Origin: Ardenticatenaceae bacterium
GTDB taxonomy: Bacteria > Chloroflexota > Anaerolineae > Promineifilales > Promineifilaceae
Direction of reading: 5' to 3'
Assembly: GCA_020634245.1 (NCBI GenBank)
Contig: JACKCC010000007.1
Coordinates: 484,555-548,554 of the forward strand
DNA: 64,000 nucleotides
Shown here in pieces: positions 1 to 64,000 of the stretch; the stretch's first letter is position 1, and the number at the start of each line of letters is the position of its first letter. A program made the position numbers and the translations under genes. The notes under the pieces were generated by a model. That model was given only the letters and a program-made list of their open reading frames with translations, was not told the origin of the DNA and did not search any database.

Positions 1-1640
1 CCAGGCTCTCTACCAGATACGTCTGCCCCAAGTGCATGTAAATTGCCTCTTCATACAGCAGCAAGGGCACGCTCTCCAAATCAATCTCGCCGATAATTTC
101 CGGGGTCGAGCCGCTGGTGTCATGAATCAACACCGTCTCATCACTGCCGGTGCGCAAGGAGACACCGCCGGCCGGCACGCCTTCGCCCAAATAATGGTAC
201 TGCTGCCGGGTTTCGTGCAGCACACCGGCCTCCTCCATCAGTTCCAGCAGCGGATCGACCGGGCCAAAGCCGCCATACGCTTCCCCTTTTTGGAAGGGCA
301 GTTCGTAGGCGGCGCACTGCAAATGTTTGACCATGATGCGCTCATTGTCGGGATTGGTCAGCGCATGTTCCGGCGAGCGGCCGAACAGGTAGCGCGGATG
401 CTGGCAAATGTACTGGTCCAGCGGGCTGTTGCCGGCGATGAGCACCGCCGCCGATTGTTCGGCCCGACGCCCGGCGCGGCCCGCCTGCTGCCAGGTAGAA
501 GCAATCGAACCAGGATAACCGGCAATCACGGCCGCATCCAGTTCACCAATGTCAATGCCCAATTCCAGGGCATTGGTGGCCACGACGCCGCGCAGTTGGC
601 CAGTGCGTAAATTGTGCTCGATTTCGCGCCGTTCCAGGGGCAGGTAGCCGCCGCGATAGCCGGTAACGGCCGTATCCGCCCACCCTCTATACGCCAATTC
701 ATCCCGCAAATAAGTCAGCAGCAGTTCCACCGATTGGCGGGTTCGGGCAAAGAGGATGGTTTGCACATCTTCAGCCAGGAAGGTAACGGCCGTGTCCCGT
801 CCCGCAATCATCGTGCTGGCCCGCAGTCCCAACTCCTCGTCGATGATGGGCGGATTGTAGAGGATGAACTGTTTTTCGCCCGTTGGCGCGCCGTTTTGCG
901 ATTCGTCAATCAGGACAAACGGCGCTTCCACTAATCGTTCGGCATGTTCGCGTGGATTGGCAATCGTTGCTGAGGCACAAATAAACTGGGGATCGCTGCC
1001 GTAAAAGTGGCAGATTCGGCACAGCCGACGCAGCACGTTGGCGACGTGGCTGCCAAAAATGCCGCGATAAGCGTGGATTTCGTCCAGCACCACAAATTCT
1101 AGGTTGCTGAACAAATCGCGCCAGCCGGTGTGATAAGGCAAAATGCCGGCGTGCAGCATGTCGGGGTTGCTGATGAGGATACCGCCTGCCGCTCGCACTT
1201 TGCTGCGCTGGCCCCGCGGCGTATCGCCGTCGTAGCTGTTAACAGCAATGGGCAGGTTGCCGGCGGCGATGATGGCGTTGGTTTCGGCGGTCTGATCGTG
1301 GGACAGGGCTTTGGTGGGGAAAAGGTAGAGGGCGCGGGCGGACGGCCGTGCCAACAAACGCTGCAATACGGGTACGGTGTAACACAGGGACTTGCCCGAT
1401 GCGGTGGCGGTGGCGATGATGACGTTGTGGTGCTGGGCAACGGCCGTTATCGCGGCTGCCTGGTGCGTGAAAAACTGGTCAATGCCCCGACGGTGAAGCG
1501 CTAACTGAAATGAAGCGGGCAATATCACATCAGGCACGGCAAAAACTGCGGGACGCGAAGCAAATCGCTGCCAGGCAACCACCTGACGCACGAAATCCCG
1601 ATTTAACCGCAAATTATTGAGTGCAGCCGATATAGGCATG
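1..1640 (-). CDS. DEAD/DEAH-box (Lhr-like) ATP-dependent helicase, C-terminally truncated by the window edge
   Basis: Minus-strand translation from ATG at 1638-1640 gives MPISAALNNL... with Walker A TASGKS and a DEIH motif II. The plus-strand ORFs 32..610, 614..934 and 1130..1504 are antisense artefacts. Confidence 0.7.
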
Positions 1641-1714
1641 AGCCGATTATATCCATATTATTGACGGTCCGCTTTTGGAATGCAGTGTCGGTTTGTATTA
1701 CAGAGTTATCCAGA

Positions 1715-1760
1715 ATGTCATTCATATATTTATATTTTATAGTAGTCTATAGTAGGCCGT
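1715..1760. promoter_or_regulatory. AT-rich tract, a possible DNA-unwinding element within the oriC-like region
   Basis: About 85% AT over ~40 bp (ttcatatatttatattttatagtagtctatagtag) inside an otherwise GC-rich genome. Degenerate DnaA boxes lie nearby. Confidence 0.35.
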
Positions 1761-2007
1761 GTTGATATGTGGATACATTACTATGACCCCGTATATCTTC
1801 TACCGTGGCTCAGACCTACCCCATTTCTGGGGTGAGTTTTTTTACCGAACTCAGATAATCAGTGTGGATGATTTTGTTTGGTTCTGATTTACAAATAGGC
1901 AGCGTAAAACGGCCCTTTTTCTAGTACCCCCGTATATATGGGCGGTTATTACTCCGTTCCTATATCTGGTTCGGACCGGAACGGCCGTTCTGTTTTATCT
2001 GGCTGAA

Positions 2008-2057
2008 TTATCCACAAAATAGCCCTGTTTTCCACAAGAATAGGGCAGTTATCCACA
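2008..2057 (+). promoter_or_regulatory. Cluster of three phased DnaA boxes: TTATCCACA, TTTTCCACA, TTATCCACA
   Basis: Perfect 9-mers at 2008-2016 and 2049-2057 and a one-mismatch box at 2028-2036, all in the same orientation with 20-21 bp spacing. Further one-mismatch boxes occur at ~1705 (TTATCCAGA) and on the opposite strand at ~1762 (GTATCCACA) and ~1862 (TCATCCACA). Confidence 0.55.
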
Positions 2058-2355
2058 GATTTGACCGGTAAAAACAAAAAGACCGGCCTTCTCAAAGAAC
2101 CGGTCTTTTCGCCGTGACCCACATTTAGGGGAACACAGGTGTTGGCGGCATGTTGCCTCACGACCCATTTACGTTAAAATGAATCATGTTTGCGCATTGT
2201 AGCAGATGGAGTGATTAAGGGCAATGGCAATTCACTGTCTGTTGTTTGGGTGCGCGGAGTTTTTGGTGATGCTGGCGAGAGATTATAAAAGTCTGCCAGT
2301 CTGTTGTAATCTAGCCGGTCACAAAAGTTTCAGACACCCCGACAGATCAAACTGC

Positions 2356-4861: not shown

Positions 4862-6898
4862 ATGGCTGAAGATAAAGACCCGGCTCCCAGATTTCGTATA
4901 AAGAACGGCCGTATATTAGTTTGGCTGCTAATCGTTTTGATAGATTTGCTGGTTGCCCAGTGGTGGCTCTGGCATGCGGTTACCCAGTCGCCGTTTGATT
5001 CACCGCCCTGGTTGGCGGTACTTTTGCTGGGTGTGGCGGTTCTGGCGTTGTTTGCCGGGCTGTCCGCTCGTATGCATCGCGATGTTGAATCTGCCGGTGT
5101 GGAATTGTCTTTGCGTTGGCTGGATTGGATACGGCCGTACGGCCGTTGGTTGGCTTTAATTGGGGCAATTGTGGCCATCACGATTGTTTTGCGCCGTATT
5201 CCACATTTAGCAGAGGATTCGAGTTATACGGCCGTATTCTGGCTCTGGCTGCTGGCGATCCTGTTTTATTTTGGCGCGGTTGTTCCCCGCTCAGAATGGC
5301 AGTGGCCGCGGCCAGACTGGCTTCAAAAGCGTGATGGCTGGTTTTGGGGAGTCGTGGTCTTTGTGGGGATAACACTGCTGCTGCGTGTCTGGCAAATTGG
5401 CACGATCCCCTTCACGCTCAGCGGTGATGAAGGTTCGCAGGGACTGGAAGCAATCGAGGTCATTAATGGCAGCTTGCGTAATCCGTTCACAACCGGGTGG
5501 CTGGGCGTGCCCACGATGAGCTTTTTCTTCAATGCCATCTCGATACGGTTGTTGGGCCGGACGATTGTCGGCCTGCGGCTGCCCTGGGCTTTGGTGGGCA
5601 CGGCGACGGTGGTGGTAGTTTATTTTTTGGTTAAACGGATTGGCGGCCGCCGATTGGGGATGGTAACGGCCGTACTGCTGGCCACTTATCACTATCACAT
5701 CCATTACTCACGCTTGGGTTCAAATCAAATCGCCGATCCGTTGTTCCTGGCACTGGCCATGCTGCTTCTGATGCGCGCCCGCGATGGGCATAAGCGGCTG
5801 GATTGGGCTTTGCTGGGAGCTGTTAATGGGTTGGCCTTTTATTTTTATGCTGGAGCGCGATTGACGCCGGTGGTGGTAACGGCAGCGCTCGGTTATTGGT
5901 TTGTCCTCAATCCAAAAAAGTTCTGGCGGGAACACGGCGGCGGGATTCTGGTGGCTGTGTGGGCCTTTTTGCTGACGGCTGCGCCCATGATCCAATACGC
6001 AGTCCGTTTTCCCAACGATTTTAATGCCCGGCTCAATCAAGTGGGCATTATTCAAAGCGGCTGGTTGGAACGTGAAGTCGAAATCCGCGGTGAAAGTCAG
6101 GCCAGCATTCTGTTCGATCAATTTCAGCGGGCGGCGCTGGCCTTCAACTATTACGCCGATCGGACGGTTTGGTATGGCCTTAGTAAACCGCTCCTCGATC
6201 CATTTTTTGGCGGATTATTCCTATTGGGCCTGCTTTACGGTACTCTTCGGTTGCTGACGCCCAAGGCTGGCCATCGGCTGGCGCCAATGGTTGCCTGGTG
6301 GTGGGGCGGCATGATTTTGGGCGGAATGCTCACCGAAAGCCCGCCCTCCAGCCAGCGCTTGATCACCCTGGCTGTGCCTACCTGTTTTTTCCTGGCATTT
6401 GCCTTGACGGATTTGCTTAAATTGGCCAGGCAGGCGGTCGGCCGTATTCCAGAGAAAGTGGTACTGGCTGTTGTTTTATTCATTTTTGCGTTCACCAGTT
6501 TGAAAACGTACTTTGTAGATTATACATCTTTGCGGGTTTACGGCGGGCAAAATGCGGAAATGGCAACCCAAATTGCACCGCTGTTGAATGAATTGAAGTA
6601 CGATCACGAATTCAAATTTGTTGGCGCGCCCTGGATGTATTGGGGGTTTGCCACACTGCCATACCTGGTGCCTGATGCTGTAGCTGGTGACATCATCGAT
6701 CTGCTGGTCGAACCCGTTTCCTTTGACGTACCGACGGCCGATAAAGGAGTGGTGTTTATTGTAATGCCACAGCGCCAGGAAGAACTGGATTATCTGATTG
6801 AACCGGCTTTGCCCAATGGCACACGTCGTGAAATCTACTCACCCATTGACGGCCGTCTCATAGTCACGCTTTACGAAATCCCCCGCTTGCAGCGTTAA
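4862..6898 (+). CDS. GT-C fold glycosyltransferase, family 39 / ArnT-like polytopic membrane protein
   Basis: Many TM helices and a GTIPFTLSGDEGSQGLEAIEV motif typical of ArnT/PMT-type GT-C enzymes. An alternative start lies at 4811. Confidence 0.65.
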   Translation: MAEDKDPAPRFRIKNGRILVWLLIVLIDLLVAQWWLWHAVTQSPFDSPPWLAVLLLGVAVLALFAGLSARMHRDVESAGVELSLRWLDWIRPYGRWLALIGAIVAITIVLRRIPHLAEDSSYTAVFWLWLLAILFYFGAVVPRSEWQWPRPDWLQKRDGWFWGVVVFVGITLLLRVWQIGTIPFTLSGDEGSQGLEAIEVINGSLRNPFTTGWLGVPTMSFFFNAISIRLLGRTIVGLRLPWALVGTATVVVVYFLVKRIGGRRLGMVTAVLLATYHYHIHYSRLGSNQIADPLFLALAMLLLMRARDGHKRLDWALLGAVNGLAFYFYAGARLTPVVVTAALGYWFVLNPKKFWREHGGGILVAVWAFLLTAAPMIQYAVRFPNDFNARLNQVGIIQSGWLEREVEIRGESQASILFDQFQRAALAFNYYADRTVWYGLSKPLLDPFFGGLFLLGLLYGTLRLLTPKAGHRLAPMVAWWWGGMILGGMLTESPPSSQRLITLAVPTCFFLAFALTDLLKLARQAVGRIPEKVVLAVVLFIFAFTSLKTYFVDYTSLRVYGGQNAEMATQIAPLLNELKYDHEFKFVGAPWMYWGFATLPYLVPDAVAGDIIDLLVEPVSFDVPTADKGVVFIVMPQRQEELDYLIEPALPNGTRREIYSPIDGRLIVTLYEIPRLQR

Positions 6899-12618: not shown

Positions 12619-12638
12619 GGTTGCGTTATAATGGAACT

Positions 12639-13475
12639 ATGTCCGACGAATATAGTTATGTAAACTCTACTGCACCCTTCCTGAAATGGGCTGGCGGCAA
12701 ACAGCGTCTGTTGACTCAGTATCAGCCTTTTTTCCCCACTGCCGACGCCATCGGGCATTATTTTGAGCCATTTATTGGCAGTGCTGCGGTCTTCTTTCAG
12801 CAGCAGTACCCGGTTGCCACCTTGTCCGACCAAAATGGGAAGCTCATTGAGGTGTATCAACAGGTGCGGGATGACTTGGACCAAGTATTTGAGGCATTGG
12901 CGCCACACCGGAATGAGCCTGATTATTATTACGAGGTTCGCTCCCAGAACCCGGTAGATTTGGTTCCCGCCGAGCGAGCGGCCCGCCTGATTTATTTGAA
13001 CAAGACCTGTTATAACGGGTTGTATCGTGAAAACAGCAAAGGGGAGTTTAATGTTCCTTTTGGCCGGTACAAGAACCCGAAAATTTGTGACGAAGTCCGA
13101 CTGCGGGCGGCGTCGGCGGCTTTGCGGGGCGTCAATCTGAAGGTGGCTGATTTTGCCGAGGCGGTGGCAACGGCCGTTGCCAATGATTTCGTTTATTTTG
13201 ACCCGCCATACGTTCCCTTAAGTCCAACCAGCAGTTTTACCAATTACCACAAAAATGGATTTGGTCAGGCCGATCAGGAACGATTGGCAGATGTAGTGGC
13301 TGAATTGACAAAGCGCAATGTGATGGTTATGTTAAGCAACTCCAGCGCGCCGTTGGTTTATGAGTTGTACGGCCGTTCCTCCTATCGAATCATCGACATT
13401 CAAGCCCGGCGCAATATCAACAGCAAAGCCGGCCAGCGGGGGCCGGTAAAAGAACTGCTCATCCTAAATTATTGA
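12639..13475 (+). CDS. Dam-class (D12) N6-adenine DNA methyltransferase, apparently solitary
   Basis: PFLKWAGGKQRLL (motif I-like) and YFDPPY (motif IV). A perfect TATAAT at 12627-12632 lies 6 nt before the ATG, suggesting a leaderless mRNA. Confidence 0.8.
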   Translation: MSDEYSYVNSTAPFLKWAGGKQRLLTQYQPFFPTADAIGHYFEPFIGSAAVFFQQQYPVATLSDQNGKLIEVYQQVRDDLDQVFEALAPHRNEPDYYYEVRSQNPVDLVPAERAARLIYLNKTCYNGLYRENSKGEFNVPFGRYKNPKICDEVRLRAASAALRGVNLKVADFAEAVATAVANDFVYFDPPYVPLSPTSSFTNYHKNGFGQADQERLADVVAELTKRNVMVMLSNSSAPLVYELYGRSSYRIIDIQARRNINSKAGQRGPVKELLILNY

Positions 13476-13532: not shown

Positions 13533-15257
13533 ATGCGACGATATATTTTACTGATTTTTGTGTTGTTAACGGCCGTATCGAGTGCAACGGCCGTTACCGC
13601 TTCCGAACCACAATCCCCATCGGCAGCCGGAACTGACTGGCGTTTTGGCGTGATTGAAAGTTACGAATCACCAGGCGATGCTGGCACGCTGGGCGCTTCC
13701 TGGACCCGCGTCCAATTTCATTGGGCCAAAACCCAGCCCAACGGCTCCGGCGAATGGCTGCCACAAGTGAGCGATGCCCAAATCAATGGCGAAATCAGTG
13801 CCGGGCGTTTGGTCACCGGGCTGCTTATTGGCATTCCTGGCTGGGCGCAAGATGAAAATGGGCTGCCACGTGGCCTTTGGCTGCCGTACGATGATCCCAA
13901 CAACACCTGGGCTGTTTTTGTCCGTGATGCTGTCAGTCGTTACCAGGGCCGCATCGATCATTGGGTGATTTGGAATGAACCGGACATCAGTGCCGGAGCG
14001 GTGGCTCACACCTGGAACGGCTCGGTACGTGATTTCTTCCAACTGCAACGCACGGCCTATCTGGCGGCCAAAGCAGTCAATCCGAACGCTGTCATTCATT
14101 TGTCGGCCTTCACTTATTTTTGGGATCCGGGCTATTTCAACCGCTTTTTGGATGAAGTTGTGGCTGATCCGGGCGCGGCTGAACACAATTATTATTTTGA
14201 CGTCGCCACCGCCCATCTTTACTTCCAGCCTAACAGTATTTATGACATCATTCAATCCTTTTATGGGGCGATGGGCGGGCATGGCATGTGGAAACCGATC
14301 TGGTTGATGGAATCGAATGCGCCGCCAATCAATGACCCGGAATGGCCGGTTTCGAACTGGACGTTGTCGGTGACTCTGGATGAACAGGCGGCGTTTATGC
14401 CCCAGATGATGGCGTCGGCGCTGGCGGCGGGGGCGCAGCGGATTGCCGTGTTCAAGTTGAAGGACACGGCCGATGATCGAGCGGCCAATCCGGAACCGTT
14501 TGGGTTAATTAGCATGAACGGCCGTCGCCGGCCAGCGTTTACCACCTATCAAGTCGGTATGCGTTATCTGGCAGGCATGACGGGCGCTTCCCGTGAACGC
14601 TGGAATGAGGTGGGGCAAGTCCGCATCGAGCAAGGCGAGCAGACGACGACGGTCTTGTTTTCGCGGCTGCCTGCCCCGCAGCAGGCTCAGGTGGTGGCTG
14701 CATCAAGCACTGCCGTTTTGGTAGATATGTGGGGAGCGCGGCGCACAATAACGGCCGTAGACGGCGTATTTACGGTTGATTTGCCGGGAGCGATTTGCAG
14801 CCAGTCTATTGGCGATTACTGCATGATTGGCGGATCCGTTTATTATTTGGTGCAGGGTGCAGGCGGAAGTCTGCCGGATGCACCGCCCGGACCGGCTCCG
14901 GCTGTGCCGCCGCCAGCACAAGAGGCGACAACGGAAACAACGGCCGCTGCCACAACTGCACCGACGCCATCACCCACCAACACACCGACGCCCACGTCCT
15001 CCCCGACGGTGACGGCCACGAAAACGGCCATGCCTACCAGGACGCCATCGCCTACGTATACCGCGACGGCTACGGCAACGGCTACGGCCGTACCTACCGA
15101 CACACCGACTGTTACGCCACCACCAACGCCCACGAGTACGGCCGTTTCTCAGCCAGCCGCCAGCCGCCAGTCAAAAACTACCAGTTACTGGTTCTTCGGC
15201 GGCGCGATACTGGTGGCATTGGGATTAGGGGGCTGGTGGTGGCGTAACGGCCGTTGA
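13533..15257 (+). CDS. Secreted GH-A clan (GH5-like) TIM-barrel glycoside hydrolase with a Pro/Thr-rich linker and C-terminal TM plus basic anchor
   Basis: Signal peptide. VIWNEPD resembles the NEP acid/base motif. The C-terminus has a PTPT-rich stretch then YWFFGGAILVALGLGGWWWRNGR. Confidence 0.6.
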   Translation: MRRYILLIFVLLTAVSSATAVTASEPQSPSAAGTDWRFGVIESYESPGDAGTLGASWTRVQFHWAKTQPNGSGEWLPQVSDAQINGEISAGRLVTGLLIGIPGWAQDENGLPRGLWLPYDDPNNTWAVFVRDAVSRYQGRIDHWVIWNEPDISAGAVAHTWNGSVRDFFQLQRTAYLAAKAVNPNAVIHLSAFTYFWDPGYFNRFLDEVVADPGAAEHNYYFDVATAHLYFQPNSIYDIIQSFYGAMGGHGMWKPIWLMESNAPPINDPEWPVSNWTLSVTLDEQAAFMPQMMASALAAGAQRIAVFKLKDTADDRAANPEPFGLISMNGRRRPAFTTYQVGMRYLAGMTGASRERWNEVGQVRIEQGEQTTTVLFSRLPAPQQAQVVAASSTAVLVDMWGARRTITAVDGVFTVDLPGAICSQSIGDYCMIGGSVYYLVQGAGGSLPDAPPGPAPAVPPPAQEATTETTAAATTAPTPSPTNTPTPTSSPTVTATKTAMPTRTPSPTYTATATATATAVPTDTPTVTPPPTPTSTAVSQPAASRQSKTTSYWFFGGAILVALGLGGWWWRNGR

Positions 15258-20096: not shown

Positions 20097-20179
20097 GGAC
20101 TTTATCCTACTTTTCCATATAGACGCAAAAACGGCCGTTTCTGTCACAAGAAACGGCCGTTTCCTCAAAACCTACTCCG

Positions 20180-29427: not shown

Positions 29428-29497
29428 GGTCCCGTTTGTTTTTAGGTAAACCACAAAAAGTCTTTTGATGAATAATCCACCATTTCTTTTTTATAAA

Positions 29498-29551: not shown

Positions 29552-29618
29552 TGTTGATTACTTTTTAACGCTGTATTCAATCTCCTTGCTCCTTAAATTT
29601 TAAATTGGGTAACGAAAT

Positions 29619-44071: not shown

Positions 44072-44542
44072 ATGAATCAATTAGCCAATGTTGGCGATTT
44101 TTGTCCAAATGAAGCCTGCCCGGATTATGGTAAGCTTCAGAAAAAACAGTCAAAACAGAACATTAAAAAACATGGTTTCACGGCAACCGGCATACAGCGC
44201 TTCCAATGCCGGACTTGTGGTCAGACATTTACGGCTACGAAAGGAACGCCCTTCTACCGGCGGCGGACAGATTCCGAAGAAATCTTGGAAACCCTGGCCT
44301 TCCTAGCCGAAGGTGTTCGGATCAGCACTCTGGCTCGCGTTCAAGGCCATAAAGAAGACACCATTCTGGCGTGGCTCAAAGATGCAGCAACTCATGTCGC
44401 TGAAATCGAATCCGTTTTGTTGGCCAACTACCAACTGGAACGGGGTCAACTGGATGCGATGTGGAGTTACGTGGCGCACAAAGGTGAAAAAAAGGCTATC
44501 CCGAGACAGAAGAACAAGGGCAGTTCTGGCGAGCGACCATGA
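44072..44542 (+). CDS. insA: IS1 InsA-like protein
   Basis: See the mobile element entry. Confidence 0.65.
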   Translation: MNQLANVGDFCPNEACPDYGKLQKKQSKQNIKKHGFTATGIQRFQCRTCGQTFTATKGTPFYRRRTDSEEILETLAFLAEGVRISTLARVQGHKEDTILAWLKDAATHVAEIESVLLANYQLERGQLDAMWSYVAHKGEKKAIPRQKNKGSSGERP

Positions 44543-45174
44543 TTGACAGTGATACCCGGCTCCGCGTCGCCAGCGGCATTGCCAAGACCGAAACGGAAGC
44601 GTCGCAGATTGTATTCACAATGCTCAAGCAGCGGGGTCATCCTGACAAGCCGCCACCGACTATCTCCGATGGTTGGGGCGGCATCCGGGAAGCGATGGTT
44701 GAAGTGTACGGTCAAGTGCCGCCCTATTCAGGGCGTGGTCGCCCACCAACGCTTAAGCAGCCAGGCGAGGATTGGCAATATCTGCAAATGGTCAAGCAAC
44801 GGGAAAACGGTCGGGTCATAGGGACTGAATTACGGGTCATTTACGGTGATGAAACGGAAGTGCTGGCCTTGTTAGGCAAGAGCACCAGTTATATTGAGCG
44901 CTCCAACTTAACCAGTCGTCATTTCAACAGCCGCTTAACCCGGAAAACATTGGCCTTTTCCAAAACCATCGCGATGCATCAGGCGGCAGCAACGCTGGAA
45001 GATGCCTACTACAATCTGGTACGGCCACACAAAACACTGCGTCAGGAGGTCGTTGCCCAAGGCCGTCGTTGGTTACCGCGAACACCGGCCATGGCCTCTG
45101 CTTTGACTGAGCATATTTGGACTGTTAAAGAACTATTTTCAAACATCCCAGTCCCCATCGTTAACAACACTTAA
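44539..45174 (+). CDS. insB: IS1 InsB-like transposase, probably expressed as an InsAB' fusion by -1 frameshift
   Basis: See the mobile element entry. Confidence 0.6.
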   Translation: MIDSDTRLRVASGIAKTETEASQIVFTMLKQRGHPDKPPPTISDGWGGIREAMVEVYGQVPPYSGRGRPPTLKQPGEDWQYLQMVKQRENGRVIGTELRVIYGDETEVLALLGKSTSYIERSNLTSRHFNSRLTRKTLAFSKTIAMHQAAATLEDAYYNLVRPHKTLRQEVVAQGRRWLPRTPAMASALTEHIWTVKELFSNIPVPIVNNT

Positions 45175-45190
45175 CGGGGAGACTATCTGG

Positions 45191-46147
45191 TTAAATTGAG
45201 GCGATGAATGTGTGACCGGTCATGCCTGTAGATACGGTAAAGAGACTGGTCAGCCAGACCCGGCGGATGGTGAGGAGGGGGGATATGGCGGCATGTTCGT
45301 TGCGTGATAACGGCCGTTCCGAGTAATACCCCGCAAAAAAGGCCTCCGACTGCTCCTCTGACCGGTGCATTAAATTGGTGTTAAGCAAAAAGGCGGCGAT
45401 GTCATACGCCCGCCAGCCAGGCCCGCATAAATCGAAATTAAAGAAGGTTGGGATACCGTTCTTGTCAAAGCGGACGCTGGCATTGTGGAAATCACCGCCA
45501 ATCGGGCCCCAACTGTCTGGCGTTTCTTCTTCGTTGTGCAGTAAAGCCAACATTTCCTCTTTGGCTTCCTGTGCAGATGTGATGACCAGGTCTAAATCAT
45601 CTTTGCGGCTCTTGTCCCACAACCGTTTGATTCGTTCCACCGATTTATCGACTAAGTATTCCAGGTTCATGGGCTGCCGCTGGTAAGGGCTTTTGTATTG
45701 ATTGGAAACAACATGAATCCGGGCTATGGCTGCGCCACATTGATAAAGTTGTTCAGCGTTATCTAACGACATTACCTGGCCAGGGGCAAAACTGAACAAG
45801 GCATAATAGCGCAGACCTTCCGGCGCATCGACGCTGCCCAGAAAACGGCCGTCACGCCGGGCCAGCGGGTAAGACACAGAAACGTCGTTCGCTTTCAAAA
45901 AGTTAAGCCAATCCAGTTCGTACAAATAATCCGATTCTTCCCGGCCCAGCGGGGTTCCCAACTGGTAGATGCGGGCAACGTACCTGGTGTTGTCGGCCGT
46001 ACGAACCAGGTAATGATCATTATCCTGGGTACGCACCATTTTGCTGAACAATTGGCAGCTTACTGGCCCCAGGTCGTATTCGTTGGTAATGACTTCGGCC
46101 AGCGCATCACTGTCGATAAATGAGCGGGCTACACGTATTTGAGTCAC
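45191..46147 (-). CDS. Aminoglycoside/homoserine-kinase-type phosphotransferase (APH family)
   Basis: GPIGGDFHNASVRFDKNG is a Brenner motif-like catalytic loop. The IS1 element ends 16 bp beyond its stop codon. Confidence 0.6.
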   Translation of the reverse strand: MTQIRVARSFIDSDALAEVITNEYDLGPVSCQLFSKMVRTQDNDHYLVRTADNTRYVARIYQLGTPLGREESDYLYELDWLNFLKANDVSVSYPLARRDGRFLGSVDAPEGLRYYALFSFAPGQVMSLDNAEQLYQCGAAIARIHVVSNQYKSPYQRQPMNLEYLVDKSVERIKRLWDKSRKDDLDLVITSAQEAKEEMLALLHNEEETPDSWGPIGGDFHNASVRFDKNGIPTFFNFDLCGPGWRAYDIAAFLLNTNLMHRSEEQSEAFFAGYYSERPLSRNEHAAISPLLTIRRVWLTSLFTVSTGMTGHTFIASI

Positions 46148-50748: not shown

Positions 50749-53099
50749 TCGTCGAAGAGGGTGGCTTCGGTAACGGCCGTTACCGAAGCATCAGACTGGC
50801 CAGCCGGTAAATGGACGGTGAAGCAGGAACCTTCACCGGGCTGACTGATAACGGTAATTTTGCCGCCCATCATCTGGCAAAAACGCTGGCTGATAGCCAA
50901 CCCTAACCCCGTGCCGCCATAATTGCGTGCCGTAGAAGAATCAGCTTGCATAAACGGCTGGAACAAATTCTCGGCCTGTGATGGTGTCATGCCAATGCCG
51001 TCATCACAGACCTCAAAATATAGCCAATCAGTTTTATCGGCACTGGTTTCCCGGTTCACAGACAATGTGATGTGCCCATCGTGGGTAAATTTGATGGCAT
51101 TGCTGAGCAAATTCATGATAATTTGCCGCAGTTTGGCCTGATCGACCGTGATGCGGCCCAAATTCTGAGCCAAATTCAAACTTAATTGATTGCTGCTATT
51201 TTTAATGAGCGGATCAACTGTGATTAACACATTGTCAATCAATTCCCGGATATTAACCGTCTCCAAATACAATTCTGTCCGGCCGGCTTCAATCTTGGAC
51301 ATATCCAGTACATCGTTGATAACGCCCAAAAGATGATGGGCCGACACCTCGATTTTCTCCAGCCGGTTAATCAAAGTGTCCCGGTCTAGATCGGGCGATT
51401 CTTCGCGCAGCAGCTCACTATAGCCGATGATGGCGGTGAGCGGCGTACGCAGTTCGTGGCTCATGTTTGCCAGAAAGGCACTTTTGGTCTGGCTGGCTGA
51501 TTCGGCCGCTTCTTTAGCGATAGATAATTCGTTGACCAGATGCTGCTCTTCATCGTACATTTGGGCGGTGCGCAGCGCCAGGGCAATCTGGTTGGCAGCA
51601 GATTGCATCAATTGCAGGTGGGTGTCCGTAAACCAGTGGGGTTCAGTGTGAGTTAAAGTCAAAATACCGACTACGCGGTCACTTTGCAAAATGGGCACGG
51701 ATAACGCGGAACGGGTTTCGTGCGGCCGATCGGGGAAATAGAGCCAGCGGTCGTCAAATCGCGCGTCGGTAATTAATGCGGCCTGACGATGGCGCATCAC
51801 CCATCCGGCCAGGCCATGAGTCATGACTTTTGTCTGGATGTTGGATTTTTGTTCAGACGAGTTGGGGTTATGGGCCAGGATACTGTTGATGATATTGGCT
51901 TGTTCATCCAAAACGAACAGGCTGCCTGCCTTTGCCTGGGTTAGCGTGGAAGCAATGTTGATGGTTCCCTGGAGGGTATCGTGCAAAAGCGGGCTTTGGG
52001 TAACGGCACGGGCGACGTCAACCAGGTTTTCGAAGAGTTGCTTTTGGTGATCGAGTTCAATTTCGGCCTGTTTGCGCTCGGTAATATCGCGGAGGAGGTA
52101 GAGACGGCCGTTCTCGATCTCCTGGTGATCATACAAAAACGACATATTGGAGGCAAAATAGCGGATTTTATCCGCTTCAACCAGTCGGATTTCGGCCTTT
52201 CCCTGATTTTGCTTGTATTGCTGGTTTAGCGGCAATAATGACCCGGCAAAAATTTCATCGACAGTCTGCCCAACCATACTTTTGGGTGAAAGGTGCAGCA
52301 GATCGCGGGCAGCCGGGTTCAAATCGACCAGTCTGTGTTCTTTGTTGAAAACAATCATGGCGTCGGTCATGTATTCAAGGGAGACGTGCCGGGCAATGGG
52401 ACTGATTTGCAAGACGTGAACTTTTACGATTCCCCGGGCCAGGAGAACGGCCGTTATCGCAAACGTGAATGGGGTCAAATCGAGATTGGCAATAGGCAAG
52501 AGGCCGGAAACGTAGAGCAGATTACCCAGCCACGGGAATAAGGCTGCCAACATCAGGCCGCGCATTTGTTGGCGATAAGGTTCGATAACCCGGCCAAACA
52601 TGCGCATCATCAATACCGTTCCCGTCAGCAGGCAAAAGTAAGAATATGCCCAATGGAGCCAAAAGGCTATGCCGTGCCCCAGAATCAAAGCCGGAAAAGG
52701 CCCTTGGGTGTCCAGTGTGATAGTTGTCCACAACCAATCTGCTTCTGGCTCTAACCAGGTGGAAAACAAGGTGATGGCAGGGATGATCCAAAGCAGCGGC
52801 CAGAATCGATACGATTTTTGCCAGCTTCGCGTGTAACGCAGACTGAAAATCAGGTAAAAAACAGGAACGCTGACGATGGCGTAGTATTGAACCTTGGCCC
52901 AGAACAGCTTGGTAGGAATGTCTCCTCCTAACAGTTCCAGGGCATATGCCCAGCACCATATGCTGGAAGAAGCAGCAAAGAAGGCAAAGATGGCCGCGCC
53001 AGCCGCCGCACGCCGCCGCCAGGCCGGTACAACGAGCGCTCCTGAAAATATGGCGGCCAGGAATAAGGGAATAGCATAGGGGGTGTATTGCCAGTTCAT
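50745..53099 (-). CDS. Sensor histidine kinase with a multi-TM N-terminus, PAS/GAF domains, HisKA and HATPase
   Basis: H-box [14 protein letters not shown]-box [12 protein letters not shown]. It overlaps the PBP gene stop by 4 nt on the opposite strand. Confidence 0.8.
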
Positions 53100-53148: not shown

Positions 53149-54729
53149 TTAGGCTACGGCCGTTTCCGCTAACGGCAGCGTAAAATAAAAAGTTGTTCCT
53201 TGCCGGAACTCGGATTCAAACCAAATACGGCCTCCATGCATTTCTACAATTTGTTTGGTGATACTCAATCCTAGTCCGGCACCGCGCCGTGCGCGCACTT
53301 GCTCATCACCTGACCGGAAAAACTGTGAAAAGATCATTGGTTGATCTTCTACGGCAATGCCCAGGCCGTCATCCTGCACGGCAACTTCGATGACAGATGG
53401 TTCGTGTTCTGTCCGCAATGTCGCCCATATTTGAACACGGCCGTTTTCAGGGGTGTACTTGTTGGCGTTGCTGATAAGGTTGGTAAGAACTTGCAAGAGT
53501 CGTTTATGATCGACCCATACTGGCGGCAAATTAAGCGGAATCGTAACTGTAACGGTTTGTTCTTTGGCAGTGAATTGAGGCTCAAGCAGTTGGTGGACGG
53601 CGTTTACGGCCGTTCCTATCGAAACCGCCGTCGGTTCCAGCTTCATTTTACCCGTTTCAATACGGGTAATATCATCCAATTCAATGACCAGGCCATGCAT
53701 CCGATCCGCCGCATCCTGAATAGCGTTGACAAACTGCGTCTGCTTTTCAGAGAGCGGTGTATGATTCAATTTGAGAATCAGATCGCCATATGCTTTGATA
53801 ACAGAAAGCGGTGTTTTTAATTCATGCGCCACCAGTGCCACAAAATCGCTCTTAGCCCGGTTAGCTGCTTGCGCTTGAGCGTACAAATAGGCATTGTTAA
53901 ACGCGATGGCTGCGTGATCGCGCAGTCGAGACAAAAAGCTGATATCACCCGACGTATAATTCTCCGTGCTTTCCAGCAGTAGCAATCCGCGTATCAGCCC
54001 ACTGCGTTGTATGGGAACCAGTACACGATAGGTCACTTCATTCAAAAGCCCTGTACCTGGTGCGAGCTTTTGTTTTTCAATACGACCGGTTGCCATTGCT
54101 TCATCCGCATCAATATCGGAACAAGTCAAAACTTTGTTCAGCAGATAATCTAAATTTTCGGATGCCTGTACGTGGACTTGTTTATCAATAATGGCTCCGA
54201 AAAGCCCGGCAGAAGCACCTGTTTGCTGTAATGCCCATTTCAGAATAATTTGAGCTACTTTGATCTCGTCCAGGTTGGTGTTCAGGTCTTGATCAATTTG
54301 CTGCAAAACAGCCAATTCGGCCAGGCGTGCTTTCTCCTGGTCGCGCAGACGTTTCTTTTCCAGAGAAGCCGAAATGCGCGCCCACAACAATGCCCCTTTA
54401 ATCGGTTTGAACAAATAGTCGTCCGCGCCTAACTCGATGCATTTGATGACGCTGTTCATATCGTCCAGCGCGGAAAGCACTACGACGGGGATGTGCTGCC
54501 ATGTGGGGTCTGCTTGCAGCTTTTCTAGTGTTTCGTACCCGTTCATTTCGGGCATCATGATGTCTAGAAGAATGAGGTCAACGGGAGTTTCCTGGAGGAG
54601 TTCGAGGGCGTGACGGCCGTTAACGGCCGTTTTCACTTCATAACCGCGCCGTTCCAGCCGGGCAGCCAATAATTCACGGACATCCTTGTTATCGTCAACT
54701 ACCAATACATTACTTTGCTGTGCTGTCAT
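53149..54729 (-). CDS. Hybrid response regulator-histidine kinase (REC, GAF-like, HisKA, HATPase)
   Basis: VLVVDDNKDVRELL...DLILLDIMMP is a REC domain. H-box ALVAHELKTPL. G-box GAGLGLSITKQ. Confidence 0.8.
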   Translation of the reverse strand: MTAQQSNVLVVDDNKDVRELLAARLERRGYEVKTAVNGRHALELLQETPVDLILLDIMMPEMNGYETLEKLQADPTWQHIPVVVLSALDDMNSVIKCIELGADDYLFKPIKGALLWARISASLEKKRLRDQEKARLAELAVLQQIDQDLNTNLDEIKVAQIILKWALQQTGASAGLFGAIIDKQVHVQASENLDYLLNKVLTCSDIDADEAMATGRIEKQKLAPGTGLLNEVTYRVLVPIQRSGLIRGLLLLESTENYTSGDISFLSRLRDHAAIAFNNAYLYAQAQAANRAKSDFVALVAHELKTPLSVIKAYGDLILKLNHTPLSEKQTQFVNAIQDAADRMHGLVIELDDITRIETGKMKLEPTAVSIGTAVNAVHQLLEPQFTAKEQTVTVTIPLNLPPVWVDHKRLLQVLTNLISNANKYTPENGRVQIWATLRTEHEPSVIEVAVQDDGLGIAVEDQPMIFSQFFRSGDEQVRARRGAGLGLSITKQIVEMHGGRIWFESEFRQGTTFYFTLPLAETAVA

Positions 54730-54829
54730 GTTGCTTGATGGGGACTGAACATGCTCCCCGCATCCTGATAATTGGTCTACTCTAATTGCTAACCTCAAAA
54801 GGTAAGGTTGACGAATTTGCCTCCCAACT

Positions 54830-55880
54830 TACACTCCTAAAGTTTGACACCACATCAGACAAAGGAGTATCCGATGAGAGGCTTAACAGATTATATTACA
54901 CAGGCAGCATGGAGCGATATTTTGACGGTTCAATATGTTTTGGTAGATGATTCTTATCAACAACTGGATGTCCATATTTTGCCTGAGCGCAAATTTGCAC
55001 CACAAGGGACGCCTTGCTTTAGTGATTCTGAGGTCATCACCATTGCCCTTTTGGGAGAGATGGTTTTTGCCGGTGATGAAGATAAAACACTGCACTTTAT
55101 ACGACAATATCATCTCGACATGTTTCCTCATTTGCTCGATAACTCTCGTTTCAATCGCCGTCGTCATCAGCTAGCGGGCGTCATGGAAGCGATTCGAGAG
55201 CATTTGCGAGACCGTTGGCGGGCAAAACATCCTCTAGATATCGAAACAGAAAACTTGCGTATCGTGGATAGTGCGCCCATCTCTATCTGCACCTATACTC
55301 GTGGTGGTCGTTGCCAGAGCATCCCATTAGATTGGCGAGATGAATGGTTTGGCGTTTGTACCAGCAAGAAAGCCAAGTTTTTTGGCGCGCGTTGCCACAT
55401 AACAACGACCCTAGACCAGATGATTGACACCTGGTTACTAGCTCCGGGTTCTTATGATGACCGTAAACCCATGGCCGCCTTGTTAGAAAATCGTCATGGA
55501 CTGTCCGTTATCGGCGACAAAGGCTATGTCAGTGAAGACCTCGCCCATCGTTTGTGGGAAGATGACCAACATCTACTCCTTGCTTTGAAGAAGGATAATC
55601 AAACAGAACAATGGCCTGACGGAATCCAACGAATATTGGGTTATTTGCGCCATCGGGTCGAAACAGCCTTTAGTGTGCTGGAAAACGTATTCGATTTTGA
55701 AAGTCCTAAATCCCGTTCGCTTGCTGGGTTGATTGCTCGGACAACCACGAAGATTTTGGCTTATACCATTAGCTTCTTTCTTGCCGAGATTCTCACCCCA
55801 GAGCTTAGCAATTAGAGTCTCATACTCCGCACGGTATACTATCTATTGTAAGGTTGTTATCAACTTTTCACTATGGCCTT
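54830..55880 (+). mobile_element. IS982-family insertion sequence (approximate ends)
   Basis: Single-ORF ~1 kb low-GC element between two GC-rich housekeeping genes. The inverted repeats were not identified, so the ends are approximate. Confidence 0.5.
54874..55815 (+). CDS. IS982-family DDE transposase
   Basis: AAGGAG RBS. D (VDSAPI), D (GDKGY) and E (RVETAF) motifs, typical of IS982/ISNCY-like transposases. The gene and its flanks have low GC. Confidence 0.65.
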   Translation: MRGLTDYITQAAWSDILTVQYVLVDDSYQQLDVHILPERKFAPQGTPCFSDSEVITIALLGEMVFAGDEDKTLHFIRQYHLDMFPHLLDNSRFNRRRHQLAGVMEAIREHLRDRWRAKHPLDIETENLRIVDSAPISICTYTRGGRCQSIPLDWRDEWFGVCTSKKAKFFGARCHITTTLDQMIDTWLLAPGSYDDRKPMAALLENRHGLSVIGDKGYVSEDLAHRLWEDDQHLLLALKKDNQTEQWPDGIQRILGYLRHRVETAFSVLENVFDFESPKSRSLAGLIARTTTKILAYTISFFLAEILTPELSN

Positions 55881-55992
55881 TTATTGCTAATTCGACTTAC
55901 GGAATAAGAGACACTATAAATCCAACAGCGTCACATTTCCGTCACCCCCCAAAAAGAAATGGTTCTTTGGGATTTCCTGGGGTCTTGAACTT

Positions 55993-56055
55993 GTCATGCT
56001 GAACAAAGTGAAGCATCCCAGAGGTGTTGGGATTCCTCGCTTCGCTCGGAATGAC
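55993..56055. repeat. MITE-like hairpin GTCATGCTGAACAAAGTGAAGCATCC...GGATTCCTCGCTTCGCTCGGAATGAC, copy 2
   Basis: Its 3' arm is 27/30 identical to 29672-29701. Confidence 0.5.
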
Positions 56056-56405
56056 AAAACCCCGCGAGATCCGAAAGACCCAAAGAAATCACAAGGTTCA
56101 TGTTTGATGAGAATGGTTTGTCGATGCGTTTGGGCACTGGGTCCGTTGAATGGGATTGGCCGTAAATCACTCATTTTGCGGCGTTTTTTCCAACTCGATT
56201 TGGGCGATTTTCACGAGTAACCATACCATTGCGTGATGGCGAAAAAGTTACCGTGAAATCAAATCCCATAGAACAGACCCAGTGCCTGCGTTTGTAATAT
56301 TTCTATAATAATTTTGTCAGCAAACTGTTATCAGCCGCAGGTATCATTCTATCAAGTAAAAAAATTGCTCAAGTAAAAATGACATAAATTCAGGCAGGAA
56401 AAATC

Positions 56406-57404
56406 ATGTTAATCAAAAAGCAAACCGGGATTGAAATTCCATCATCAGAAATAACGCCGGAACATATTTACCGAACCCGGCGCCAGTTTATGAAAAGTGC
56501 TGTGGCGTTGGCTGGCGGTGTCTTATTGGCGTCATGTGCTCCCAGGGCAGAAGAGACGGCTATGGAAGAGAGTACGGCCGTTCCCCCCACCACAACTCCC
56601 AAAACTGAACCGGCCACAACAACAGCCGCCCGTGCCACTGCCGACGAATTGGGCGATCCGCTCAACACCTTCGAGCAAATCACCAACTACAACAACTACT
56701 ACGAATTTACCACTGATAAAGAAGAAGTTGCTAAATTAGCTAAAGATTTCCCTACGTCACCCTGGCAAATTGAAGTAGGCGGCATGGTCAATAAGCCGCA
56801 AACATTCAGCATCGACGATTTGCGCGCCTTCGAGCAAGAAGAACGCATCTACCGGCTGCGCTGCGTCGAAGCCTGGTCTATGATCATCCCCTGGATGGGC
56901 TTCCCGCTGGCTAAACTGCTCCAAGCAGTAGAGCCAACCGCCGACGCCAAATACGTCCGCTTCGAGACCATCCTCGATCCTGATAATATGCCCGGTCAGA
57001 GAAGCCCCTGGTTCAACTGGCCCTATGTCGAAGGATTGCGCCTGGATGAAGCGATGAACGACTTAACCCTGATGGCTACCGGCTTGTACGGCAAGGAACT
57101 GATGCCCCAGAGTGGTGCGCCCCTCCGGCTGGTTGTGCCCTGGAAATACGGCTTCAAAAGCATCAAATCCATCGTTAAAATCGATTTGGTCGATAAAATG
57201 CCCGTTTCCCTGTGGATGGATTCTGCGCCCAACGAATACGGCTTTTACGCCAATGTCAATCCTGAAGTAGACCACCCTCGCTGGTCGCAGGCTACCGAAC
57301 GGCGTATTGGCGAACTCGGCCGCCGTGAAACGTTGATGTTCAACGGTTATGCTGAACAAGTCGCCTATTTGTACGATGGTATGGATTTACGGGCGAATTT
57401 CTAA
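56406..57404 (+). CDS. msrP: Protein-methionine-sulfoxide reductase catalytic subunit MsrP (YedY-like molybdoenzyme)
   Basis: TAT signal [14 protein letters not shown]. Sulfite-oxidase-family Moco domain. Confidence 0.75.
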
Positions 57405-61596: not shown

Positions 61597-61655
61597 ACGA
61601 TTACTGGTTATTTAGTCGAGAGAATCATAAATCACCTACTATCTTTTTACAACAT

Positions 61656-63464
61656 TTAGTCGGTGTTTTCTTGCGGGTGGGAGACACGGCCGTTATCCCC
61701 CACCGTCTCTTTTTGCAGCAATATTCCCATCAGCCCGTCCACCAAACCGGAACCGCTGCTGCCGCTCACCGACACATCAGGCACAATCCGGACCTGACGG
61801 TCACCGACCACCTGCATCAATTGCAGCGCCGTAAATCCTTGCGGCCCTAGCGCCTCCACACCAGCCCGGTACGCTTCTGCCTTCGCCTCGCCGATTTTGC
61901 GTACCGCTTCCGCCTCGCCCAGGGCTTGCAGCCGTGTCGCTTCCGCTTCACCGGTCGCCCGCTTGATTTCGGCTTTGGCCCGCAGTTCGGCAATCGTCAC
62001 GCCCTGCTCCGAGCTGACCATATCCTGCTGGATATCGGCCATGGCTGTAGCCCGCACCAACTCCTGCCGCTGGTCTTGAGCCAGCTTTTGAATGTTGTAC
62101 GTTTCCCGCTGTTCTTCAGCGATTTTACGTTCCGTTTGCGTGCGCATCAGCTCTTCCGGCGGCGTGATGTCGCCGATGAGTGTGTCCAGCGCCTGCACAT
62201 CATAAGCACTGATGGCCCGACGGATGTGGGCTGTCGCTTCCACCTGCCGCTCGCTGCGGGCGCTCAGAAAGTCCAGTACCGTATACTCCTGTGCCGAGTT
62301 ACGGAAATAGTTGCCTACAATCGGCTGCAAGACATGGTCTACCAGATTTTGTACCGAGCCGACGCGCGAGATGACTTTAGGCGCTTCCGGCGCACCGATG
62401 TGGATAATCTGCGACACGTCCAGGTTAAAAGCAAAACCATCCTTGGAGCGCACGGTGATAGGCGACAATTGGGCATCGTAGCGATGGGATTCGGTGCGGC
62501 TGGCCCAGTTGAGGACGATGTTGGTCGTTGGCACCAGTTCGACTTTCATCACCATGGGATTGATGGGATGTTTGCCGGGATAAAGTGGTGTGACCCAGAC
62601 GCCTTTGTGGCCCGGTTCCACCAGATTGCCATGCTTAAATGCTTCGCCGCTGACGTCTTGATGGGCCTTGCCGACATAGGCAATGACGATGCCGACGTGC
62701 CCGATGGGGATTTCGGTCATTGGGACCTGTTCCACGCTGACGAACCAGGGGTTGAGGTTCCAGGAACCGGACAGCAGCACCTGCTCCTGCAAACCACGTC
62801 GTCCAATGTTGTCCAGGAAGGATTGGGCGTCCTGGAAGTTGTTGTGTTCGTGGACGATTGGGCCGGCTATCTCACCTTCGTCGATGGAACGGCCGTCCAA
62901 CGTCGTCACAATCCCCACCCGATCCGGCTGCACCGAGTAAACGTGAAGCTGGCGCGGCGTCATGCCGTGTGTTTCTGCATTCTGGGCCGTGATTACCGAG
63001 AACAAGGCGCTGTTGATGCGGTAGGTACCGGCAGTTAAAATGCCAAGCTGCCGCCCTTTTTCGCCCCGATTCATCAAGAACTTGCGCGCATCCTGAAAAT
63101 TATCGCAGTCTACCACGCGAGCCAAAATTCGTTCTGGCGGAATGGAAGCGCCGGCCGCCGCCACTACCAGGCCGATTTCACCCTGGGGTACGACGGTTAC
63201 GGGCACTTTGCGCACAGCAAACCGCCAGGGGAAATAGCCAAAATGCCAGCCGGGCGCCAGTGTGTCGGCCTGATAACCGGCTTCGCCTTTGAGGGCAATG
63301 AGCTGGCCGGGGGCCAGCCGCGAACCAAATTTCTTGACCACAACGCCCACTTCTCGCTCGTTGACGATGACCAGCCCCAGTAAGGAGCGTGCTGAAAGGG
63401 CGATGATAACCAGAGCGACCAGGCCAATAAAGATAATAAGCAGGATTGTTGATACGATTGACAT
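61656..63464 (-). CDS. SPFH/band-7 flotillin-like protein
   Basis: N-terminal TM helix, SPFH domain and a long Ala/Glu-rich coiled-coil C-terminus (EAEATRLQALGEAEAVRKIGEAKAEAYRAG). Confidence 0.8.
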   Translation of the reverse strand: MSIVSTILLIIFIGLVALVIIALSARSLLGLVIVNEREVGVVVKKFGSRLAPGQLIALKGEAGYQADTLAPGWHFGYFPWRFAVRKVPVTVVPQGEIGLVVAAAGASIPPERILARVVDCDNFQDARKFLMNRGEKGRQLGILTAGTYRINSALFSVITAQNAETHGMTPRQLHVYSVQPDRVGIVTTLDGRSIDEGEIAGPIVHEHNNFQDAQSFLDNIGRRGLQEQVLLSGSWNLNPWFVSVEQVPMTEIPIGHVGIVIAYVGKAHQDVSGEAFKHGNLVEPGHKGVWVTPLYPGKHPINPMVMKVELVPTTNIVLNWASRTESHRYDAQLSPITVRSKDGFAFNLDVSQIIHIGAPEAPKVISRVGSVQNLVDHVLQPIVGNYFRNSAQEYTVLDFLSARSERQVEATAHIRRAISAYDVQALDTLIGDITPPEELMRTQTERKIAEEQRETYNIQKLAQDQRQELVRATAMADIQQDMVSSEQGVTIAELRAKAEIKRATGEAEATRLQALGEAEAVRKIGEAKAEAYRAGVEALGPQGFTALQLMQVVGDRQVRIVPDVSVSGSSGSGLVDGLMGILLQKETVGDNGRVSHPQENTD

Positions 63465-63632
63465 GATTTTTTACTCCATTTTTAGTGTGAAAAATTTAAC
63501 CGGGGAGGTGCGGAGAGCACAGAGATTTTTAGTTTTGAGAAAGTTGTGTGACATGTTTCTTTGTGTTCCCCTTGTCTTTTCGGTTTTTATATTGCTGAAA
63601 TTGGCGATTTGAAAAACATCGCGCCTACAAAT

Positions 63633-63965
63633 TTAATTGGTGATGTATTTTCGAATCATGGTGACGATTTGTTGGGCGTCTGGTTCGTCCACGGCCGTTG
63701 CCAGACGGATTGTTTTGTCATCATAATCGAAGGAAATGGCACGGCCGTTCCGCTGCGGCGTAACACGGACGTGATGGATGCGGCTCAAGTTGTATCGCTG
63801 GCGGTAGCCCAGGCCAAACAGACTGCGCCGGTAAATGAGATGAGTCGAATTAACACTCACGATTTGGCGTACCCCAAACTGCCAGAGCAAGTCGAGCACT
63901 GCGGCAAAGCCGCCAGCCGTCCACAAGACGGACCAGGTGAGGAAACAATTGCCGCTGCCAATCAC
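63633..63965 (-). CDS. Hypothetical protein upstream of the flotillin gene (possibly a PH-like/YdbT-type domain)
   Basis: 110-aa ORF. The start may lie beyond the ORF-track start near the window edge. Confidence 0.4.
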   Translation of the reverse strand: MIGSGNCFLTWSVLWTAGGFAAVLDLLWQFGVRQIVSVNSTHLIYRRSLFGLGYRQRYNLSRIHHVRVTPQRNGRAISFDYDDKTIRLATAVDEPDAQQIVTMIRKYITN

Positions 63966-64000
63966 TCCTTGCCGGTTAATCTCATTAACGGTGGCTAATT

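Follow-up and report, generated by a model that had tools for sequence, protein, structure and literature searches.

Highly iterated palindromes (HIPs) are described only in cyanobacteria in the full-text literature that we searched, whose coverage is incomplete, and both the function and the origin of their archetype HIP1 (GCGATCGC) have stayed open for about 30 years. HIP1 is a GC-rich perfect palindrome of 8 bp and the most over-represented octamer of its host genomes, present at about 1-2 copies per kb in coding and non-coding DNA and in all reading frames, with enrichments reported to range from 15-300x (PMC5861425), with sites conserved above background and with one-off variants that concentrate at the first and last positions (PMC4390886). 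According to a recent account, its copies formed in place by substitution (10.64898/2026.06.24.733823), without indels. Certain cyanobacterial lineages have replaced HIP1 by alternate palindromes (GGGATCCC, TCGATCGA, GGCGCC, rCCGGy, GCsGC, CAGGCCTG), whose cores are typical Type II methyltransferase sites and each of which is accompanied by a matching methyltransferase in the same genome (PMC4390886; 10.64898/2026.06.24.733823). Here we analyse a 64,000-base stretch (GC 52.2%; hereafter the window) from a Promineifilaceae bacterium of the phylum Chloroflexota, in which another octamer, ACGGCCGT, very probably is a HIP-type, substitution-propagated signature. It shares the GGCC centre of CAGGCCTG and differs from HIP1 in having neither GATC nor a CGATCG core, which rules out reliance on the pair formed by Dam-like DmtA and CGATCG-specific DmtC. 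In the same incompletely covered literature we found no report of HIPs in Chloroflexota and none that describes ACGGCCGT, be it as a signature of genomes or as a motif for methylation. The Nanomotif preprint makes no mention of it.

The signature as a whole can be entered as a single feature:

1-64,000: ACGGCCGT in 111 exact copies, dispersed at 1.73 per kb and spaced in a Poisson-like manner

The original prediction had put the count by eye at about 100-110 and the chance level at one or two per 64 kb, and both figures hold up well, as 100 dinucleotide-preserving shuffles of the window gave a mean of 1.23 copies (maximum 4). Enrichment over expectation amounts to 93x for the exact octamer in the window and to 78x in 211 kb of pooled HIP-rich DNA, well inside the range known from HIP1. 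When all 8-mers of this one window are ranked by Markov models, as had been proposed for the whole genome, ACGGCCGT comes first at orders 2, 3 and 4, with observed-to-expected ratios (O/E) of 39, 22.7 and 8.4 that fall as the higher orders swallow part of the motif's own signal. The runner-up palindromic 8-mer has 6 copies, and the remaining frequent 8-mers are all overlaps of ACGGCCGT. Thirty-one of the 111 copies take the form AACGGCCGTT and 67 have A/T flanking both sides, while HIP1 itself (GCGATCGC) is absent from the window (0 copies), in agreement with the earlier view that the core is a different one.

Genes in the window, mapped from open reading frames (ORFs) together with Pfam, NCBIfam and PADLOC matches, are an ordinary chromosomal set (ABC transporters, histidine kinases, glgA, PBP1A, peptidases and others), and coding sequence makes up 90% of it. 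Inside these genes lie 105 copies, spread over 44 of the 61 gene models, and 6 are intergenic; enrichment through a single repeated gene family, which had been raised as an alternative, therefore fails. All three frames are used, as had been claimed: ACG-GCC-GTx (Thr-Ala-Val) by 53 copies, xAC-GGC-CGT ([N/D/Y/H]-Gly-Arg) by 39 and xxA-CGG-CCG-Txx (Arg-Pro) by 13. Permuting synonymous codons with the proteins kept leaves 11.6+-3.0 of the 105 coding copies, and shuffling codon order within genes leaves 2.0+-1.4. The pressure toward the octamer thus works at two levels, codon choice and protein sequence, and the proteome is biased by it: the tripeptide TAV occurs 57 times where composition predicts 7.8 (53 of the 57 are octamer-encoded), NGR 23 times against 3.1 and DGR 13 times against 4.3.

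How the copies came about and how long they last can be read from comparison with relatives. Over 10 kb of synteny with locus L001 (nucleotide identity 76.9%), 15 of the 18 sites in the window have a counterpart in L001 and 15 of the 16 in L001 have one in the window, against a background of 16.5% for all 8-mers in the same alignments. Pooled non-redundant pairs at 75-85% identity, which are phylogenetically non-independent, share 85-89% of sites and 18-24% of generic 8-mers. At the orthologous positions of relatives that lack the octamer the sequence has diverged and still aligns without gaps, which implies that the sites were made in place by substitution, non-synonymous changes included, as is the case for HIP1. 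Two positions serve as examples:

39,665-39,672: decayed site ACGGTCGT, with a C-to-T change at an inner C; the orthologous position reads ACGGCCGT in L001, L002, L004 and L044
41,158-41,165, plus strand: example site in glgA, encoding N-G-R; octamer-less relatives align gap-free with EGR, DAR, EAR or similar

The octamer hence is a genome-wide sequence signature and no mobile repeat, and its copies are kept far longer than the sequence around them. Within glgA, octamer sites sit at the more variable protein positions (entropy 1.26 vs 0.83, P ~0.05, 5 sites). No relative above 76% amino-acid identity came out of a metagenome scan, which leaves recent gain and loss of sites unpolarised. We do not claim that sites are written in single multi-nucleotide events: where a site is not shared, its partner usually deviates from it at 3-5 positions, but fast-evolving protein positions predict the same.

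The signature is bounded phylogenetically. Relatives by glgA are metagenome-assembled genomes (MAGs) of the Promineifilaceae and of Anaerolineae/Ardenticatenales type, with L001 the closest (91% amino-acid identity). ACGGCCGT is the top palindrome, at 1.0-1.8 per kb, in a clade that comprises L001-L004, L018, L021, L022 and L025, and it also tops environmental contigs L086, L096, L097, L108, L110 and L111 at 1.7-2.7 per kb; a neighbouring group has intermediate densities of 0.2-0.4 per kb (14x pooled), and in the high-GC Promineifilum-type genomes and other phyla sampled it does not rise above chance. Five loci (L006, L027, L030, L032, L033) have no ACGGCCGT at all and in its place bear TGCCGGCA, with 0.4-1.65 copies per kb (17x pooled). 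Read backwards without complementing, ACGGCCGT gives its mirror image TGCCGGCA, so that all eight positions differ, and CGGCCG is depleted in several of the loci that bear it. One of the five, L006, is a neighbour of the window's clade in the glgA tree. A third palindrome variant of the family may be GCGGCCGC, the NotI site, with 20 copies against ~3.5 expected in L017 (GC 67%). The earlier suggestion to compare octamer frequencies among relatives has thus revealed a motif that is abundant in one clade, less dense in a neighbouring group and absent or replaced in others. Lineage-specific replacement likewise sets alternate cyanobacterial HIPs apart from HIP1; the switch seen here differs in running between mirror images, with every position changed.

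In the same comparison, a 10.5-kb locus from a MAG labelled 'Gammaproteobacteria' (L044) has conserved ACGGCCGT sites and part of a glgA gene that is 92% identical to that of the window; it probably is a mis-binned Promineifilaceae contig, and the octamer could serve as a binning check for such cases.

Enrichment is tied closely to the octamer itself. Words with one mismatch are enriched 1.5-1.8x in HIP-rich DNA and to the same degree (1.7x) in relatives without the element, and words with two or more mismatches stay at ~1x: only the exact octamer is favoured. In the pooled 211 kb, one-off variants number 31-35 for each outer position and 2-17 for inner ones, a bias shared with HIP1 that here owes part to a general 2.3x excess of CGGCCG outside octamers. 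Around the motif there is a weak symmetric context, GG-N-A|ACGGCCGT|T-N-CC, which intergenic copies and copies in different frames share. It recurs in other genomes, where 237 independent sites have A at -1 (58%), G at -4 (57%) and G at -3 (48%). The preference is weak out to +-4 to 10 nt, with no conserved sequence past ~16 bp. Symmetric preference over about 16 bp combined with near-absolute discrimination against single mismatches would fit a homodimeric, Type II-like DNA enzyme.

Replicons other than the chromosome carry the signature as well. We probed IMG/VR with octamer doublets. Many matches were due to chance, but 15 loci were 3 kb or longer and had a density of 1.5 copies per kb or more. 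These 15 loci hold 288 ACGGCCGT sites in 110 kb, at up to 3.7 per kb, and share flank signature and frame order with the chromosome. Contigs of phage or conjugative type bear the octamer at 2-4 per kb. On a 65.5-kb contig (L227, L285; 3.5 per kb) the portal gene has 5 copies and the head-maturation protease 9; other loci encode a large terminase (L225), a tail spike (L273) or a phage-type replication module (L159). L174, 13 kb of a 100-kb IMG/VR contig with 49 octamers (3.7 per kb, ~2x chromosomal density), is conjugative or plasmid-like and encodes a ParA-like protein, an FtsK/SpoIIIE-like ATPase and a lytic transglycosylase. Hosts of these contigs are putative, assigned only from the shared signature. 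For one ORF in phage locus L225, which contains DPPY, no family match was obtained. A triple-copy probe for HIP1 retrieved 34 viral loci (within L294-L391, e.g. L388, L316, L334) with 1.5-5.4 GCGATCGC per kb, among which L388 has genes for a ribonucleotide reductase and the large terminase. Both systems thus appear to have dense marking of phage-type DNA in common, and we found no discussion of HIP1 enrichment in phage genomes in the HIP literature examined.

Recently arrived genes present the opposite picture. The longest octamer-free segments of the window, and its two DNA methyltransferase genes, are as follows:

12,621-13,475, plus strand: Dam-family N6-adenine DNA methyltransferase (PF02086, 1.3e-60; TIGR00571, 272 bits), a resident gene with 2 octamers
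29,298-31,936: largest octamer-free gap (2640 bp), spanning the N6/N4 DNA methyltransferase-Mrr nuclease fusion gene
29,757-31,406, minus strand: the N6/N4 DNA methyltransferase-Mrr fusion gene itself (1650 bp, 0 octamers)
42,886-45,309: second octamer-free gap (2432 bp), spanning insertion sequence (IS)-type ORFs at 44,072-45,174 (plus strand)
54,631-56,573: third octamer-free gap (1951 bp), spanning a DDE transposase at 54,844-55,815 (plus strand)

A MazEF toxin-antitoxin pair has no octamer either, and four mobile or defence segments of ~4.3 kb in total, picked after seeing the data, hold 0 octamers where ~7.5 would be expected. Taken as a whole, the signature builds up in long-resident DNA - chromosomal, phage-like and conjugative - and is missing from recently arrived genes. 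The MazEF pair is itself bracketed by direct repeats:

32,581-32,643: copy 1 of a 63-nt direct repeat, starting with T plus ACGGCCGT
32,655-33,265: MazEF cassette between the repeats
33,291-33,353: copy 2, 90% identical to copy 1, also starting with T plus ACGGCCGT

The duplication had been noticed before and is indeed present, although it measures 63 nt instead of 64 bp and begins one base before the octamer rather than exactly at it. At the corresponding position L002 has one repeat copy and a shorter spacer, from which it follows that the insertion junction of the MazEF cassette coincides with an octamer, reminiscent of HIP1-flanked rearrangements reported in cyanobacteria.

Both DNA methyltransferases announced by the original prediction thus exist, but its hint that they might be linked to the octamer does not stand up. 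The Dam-family enzyme is, judged from its family, probably GATC-specific and hence unlikely to be cognate, since GATC is not contained in the octamer; GATC itself is depleted in the window (O/E 0.51) despite the presence of this gene. The fusion enzyme is an unlikely partner, too, because its segment is free of octamers and apparently was acquired recently. Restriction may have left its mark on sequence composition. Both palindrome cores, CGGCCG and GCCGGC, belong to the classical targets of Type II enzymes. Even outside octamers, CGGCCG is the most over-represented 6-bp palindrome of the window (2.3x), whereas other 6-bp palindromes are avoided (CTGCAG 0 vs 15-19 expected, GTGCAC 0 vs 18, GGGCCC 1 vs 30, CCCGGG 3 vs 25, GCATGC 5 vs 37; GAGCTC, CTCGAG and CCTAGG 0 each), which suggests a long history of multiple restriction systems.

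That ACGGCCGT belongs with the HIPs, as originally proposed, rests on a single dominant GC-rich 8-bp palindrome in all frames, on substitution without indels, on conserved sites, on outer-position variants and on lineage replacement. As to what drives it, we favour - tentatively, and at somewhat short of even confidence - a ratchet of methylation and repair, in which a resident recognition system of restriction-modification type acts together with biased repair. The octamer would be targeted by a symmetric (homodimer-type) recognition system that resides in the cell and is as stringent as a Type II restriction-modification enzyme, in its likeliest form a methyltransferase for a site that holds the CGGCCG/GGCC core plus biased mismatch or short-patch repair. 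Near-matches would be turned into the octamer and existing octamers shielded from mutation, and a lineage that gained another recognition system would build up another palindrome (TGCCGGCA, possibly GCGGCCGC). The logic follows Elhai's model for cyanobacterial HIPs (PMC4390886). We prefer it because the cores are Type II targets and CGGCCG is over-represented amid general avoidance of 6-bp palindromes, and also because specificity is all-or-none and an unrelated palindrome has taken its place in sister lineages, as would be expected if a restriction-modification-type module had been exchanged.

There is precedent for an oligomer whose frequency is set by a repair or recombination enzyme rather than by coding needs, namely Chi and the bias driven by very short patch (VSP) repair at CCWGG in E. 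coli, and VSP repair is a documented route by which methyltransferase-linked repair raises the frequency of its target site. These cases differ from ours in magnitude (few-fold vs ~90-fold), in that Chi is asymmetric and strand-oriented, and in that VSP repair alone cannot create the outer A/T.

Several observations weigh against the ratchet. Short-patch repair of T:G to C:G cannot create the outer A and T of ACGGCCGT, and Elhai's G-meC rule, not directly applicable to outer bases that are A...T here and G...C in HIP1, does not predict such flanks, which means that one must postulate a reader specific for all 8 bp. No depletion is visible for variants with T at an inner cytosine, with counts so small that they are uninformative on deamination. 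Neither a cognate methyltransferase nor a gene of Vsr or MutH type came to light, and 221 kb of HIP-rich DNA contain no C5-methyltransferase or Vsr motif, a weak negative given that this is a small fraction of any one genome. (Across all loci the scan for these motifs gave a single match, GPPCQ in L006, which falls in a spurious ORF that overlaps real genes.) Finally, the ratchet accounts for phage densities above the chromosomal one only if weaker protein constraint or direct selection is assumed in addition.

Direct selection is the essence of the main rival, which sees the octamer as a marker of self DNA or a recombination signal - a palindromic, orientation-independent counterpart of Chi - so that a nuclease/helicase or defence system spares or recombines marked DNA, and the chromosome together with successful phages and plasmids would be selected for many copies. 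We consider this rather unlikely, though it has several results on its side. Phage genes (portal with 5 copies, head protease with 9, terminase, tail spike) and the conjugative-type element reach or exceed host density, newly arrived IS, toxin-antitoxin and methyltransferase genes lack the octamer, sites are strongly conserved and one rearrangement junction in the window coincides with a copy. In addition, HIP1 placed in homology arms is reported to raise the efficiency of transformation and integration in a methylation-dependent manner (10.1101/2024.09.10.611283; 10.64898/2026.06.24.733823), which together with the phage data makes this rival attractive. The density on phages is, however, also explicable by long residence of prophages under a cell-wide drive, and the complete replacement of one palindrome by another in sister lineages fits more readily with a swapped module of restriction-modification type. 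Known Chi sites are asymmetric and only few-fold enriched. An enrichment of 90-fold with strong distortion of the proteome goes far beyond any of them, and we identified no nuclease candidate.

The notion of a DNA uptake sequence, which would spread by molecular drive as competent cells preferentially take up and recombine marked DNA, strikes us as unlikely. Resemblances to the DNA uptake sequence (DUS) of Neisseria and the uptake signal sequence (USS) of Haemophilus and other Pasteurellaceae are real: about 1-2 copies per kb, location within genes in all frames with an excess of particular peptides, accumulation by point mutation and scarcity in new genes (PMC1939737); an uptake role has also been proposed for HIP1 in a 2026 preprint (10.64898/2026.06.24.733823). 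Uptake sequences are, however, asymmetric and show graded enrichment of near-matches (PMC1939737), while our profile is all-or-none, with 93x for exact copies and, for one mismatch, values no higher than in HIP-less relatives, and the motif is a perfect palindrome set in a symmetric extended context. DUS and USS often stand as inverted pairs at terminators, whereas no terminator-type inverted pairs occur here and only 6 of 111 copies are intergenic. Nor are they a feature of phage genomes: densely marked phage structural genes are not predicted by uptake and chromosomal recombination, and in the switch between lineages all eight positions change together. The window contains no competence genes.

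A binding site for an abundant nucleoid-associated or chromosome-structuring protein, selected for overall density, is in our judgement very unlikely. The symmetric 16-bp context suggests a dimeric binder, density is even (4-11 copies in each 4-kb bin of the window), and a role in chromosome structure has been proposed for HIP1 from kb-scale periodicity (PMC5861425). Against this, spacing over the short range that the window affords is indistinguishable from random (coefficient of variation 0.90; Kolmogorov-Smirnov P = 0.36 against an exponential); the site-density periods reported for HIPs, 10-90 kb, lie beyond the reach of 64 kb. Such proteins usually tolerate degenerate sites, in contrast to the exact octamer that alone is enriched here, and neither dense marking of phages nor wholesale switching of palindromes would be expected of them.

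An origin from a miniature inverted-repeat transposable element (MITE) or repetitive extragenic palindromic (REP) element, a repeated gene family or selection on an encoded peptide, superficially suggested by high copy number, palindromy and the few copies that sit within longer perfect palindromes of 18-26 bp, is effectively refuted: REP elements and MITEs are extragenic, longer, imperfect palindromes that leave indels, whereas our unit is 8 bp with nothing conserved beyond ~16 bp, 95% intragenic, in three frames and free of indels against orthologs, and it lies in 44 of 61 unrelated genes and in three different peptides, with synonymous permutation removing 90% of copies. An 18-nt palindrome of Caldithrix is intergenic and REP-like and represents another phenomenon.

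Coming back to a HIP-type signature with a proposed resident recognition system behind it, what is new here is its sequence, its phylum, the lack of a GATC/CGATCG context, switching within a family and the dense marking of phage and conjugative DNA. An independent HIP provides a natural replicate for a phenomenon studied only in cyanobacteria, and closely related lineages with ACGGCCGT, with TGCCGGCA or with neither form an ideal contrast for phyletic profiling; any gene family that co-varies with palindrome identity in both phyla would become the prime candidate for the machinery. Dense marking of phage and conjugative DNA, which extends to HIP1, argues against uptake as the sole drive and in favour of either a process that acts throughout the cell or self-marking. 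One may go further and see HIP formation as general and convergent, with a resident system that writes an 8-bp palindrome by substitution into every persisting replicon and that has arisen at least twice in Promineifilaceae to give mirror-image palindromes; mobile elements with up to 2x chromosomal density would then suggest that the mark is read as 'self' by a nuclease, repair or recombination system and is mimicked. This we regard as a possibility worth stating and tentative at that. In practical terms, the octamer is a strong signal for binning and host assignment of Promineifilaceae MAGs, plasmids and viruses.

Closely spaced copies had been reported earlier as tandem doublets, and they exist, a few bases away from where they had been placed:

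5,131-5,146: doublet of two abutting octamers
13,569-13,594: close octamer pair
20,131-20,160: close octamer pair
54,613-54,630: close octamer pair

Their frequency equals chance, with 5 gaps of less than 30 nt observed and 5.4 simulated at the same density, and as spacing fits random placement, neither doublets nor regular spacing can be regarded as meaningful. A few octamers are embedded in longer symmetry, namely 18-bp perfect palindromes at 12,117, 13,165 and 32,577, and the following:

50,764-50,789: 26-bp perfect palindrome GCTTCGGTAACGGCCGTTACCGAAGC with the octamer at its centre, at the ends of the convergent PBP1A and histidine kinase genes

The latter may be a bidirectional terminator built around the motif. 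At the left edge of the window, which cuts it, lies a gene (2-1,657, minus strand) for a DEAD/DEAH helicase with an HRQ1-type winged-helix domain that matches SngC, BrxHI and DruE models; it has 4 octamers despite these matches to defence systems and appears to be long-resident. An unannotated secreted protein of 574 amino acids (13,533-15,257, plus strand) adjoins the Dam-family gene and has a Pro/Thr-rich linker and a C-terminal membrane anchor. With 7 octamers its gene reaches the top density among large genes, and with several TAV tripeptides in signal peptide and linker it illustrates how segments under low constraint take up the motif.

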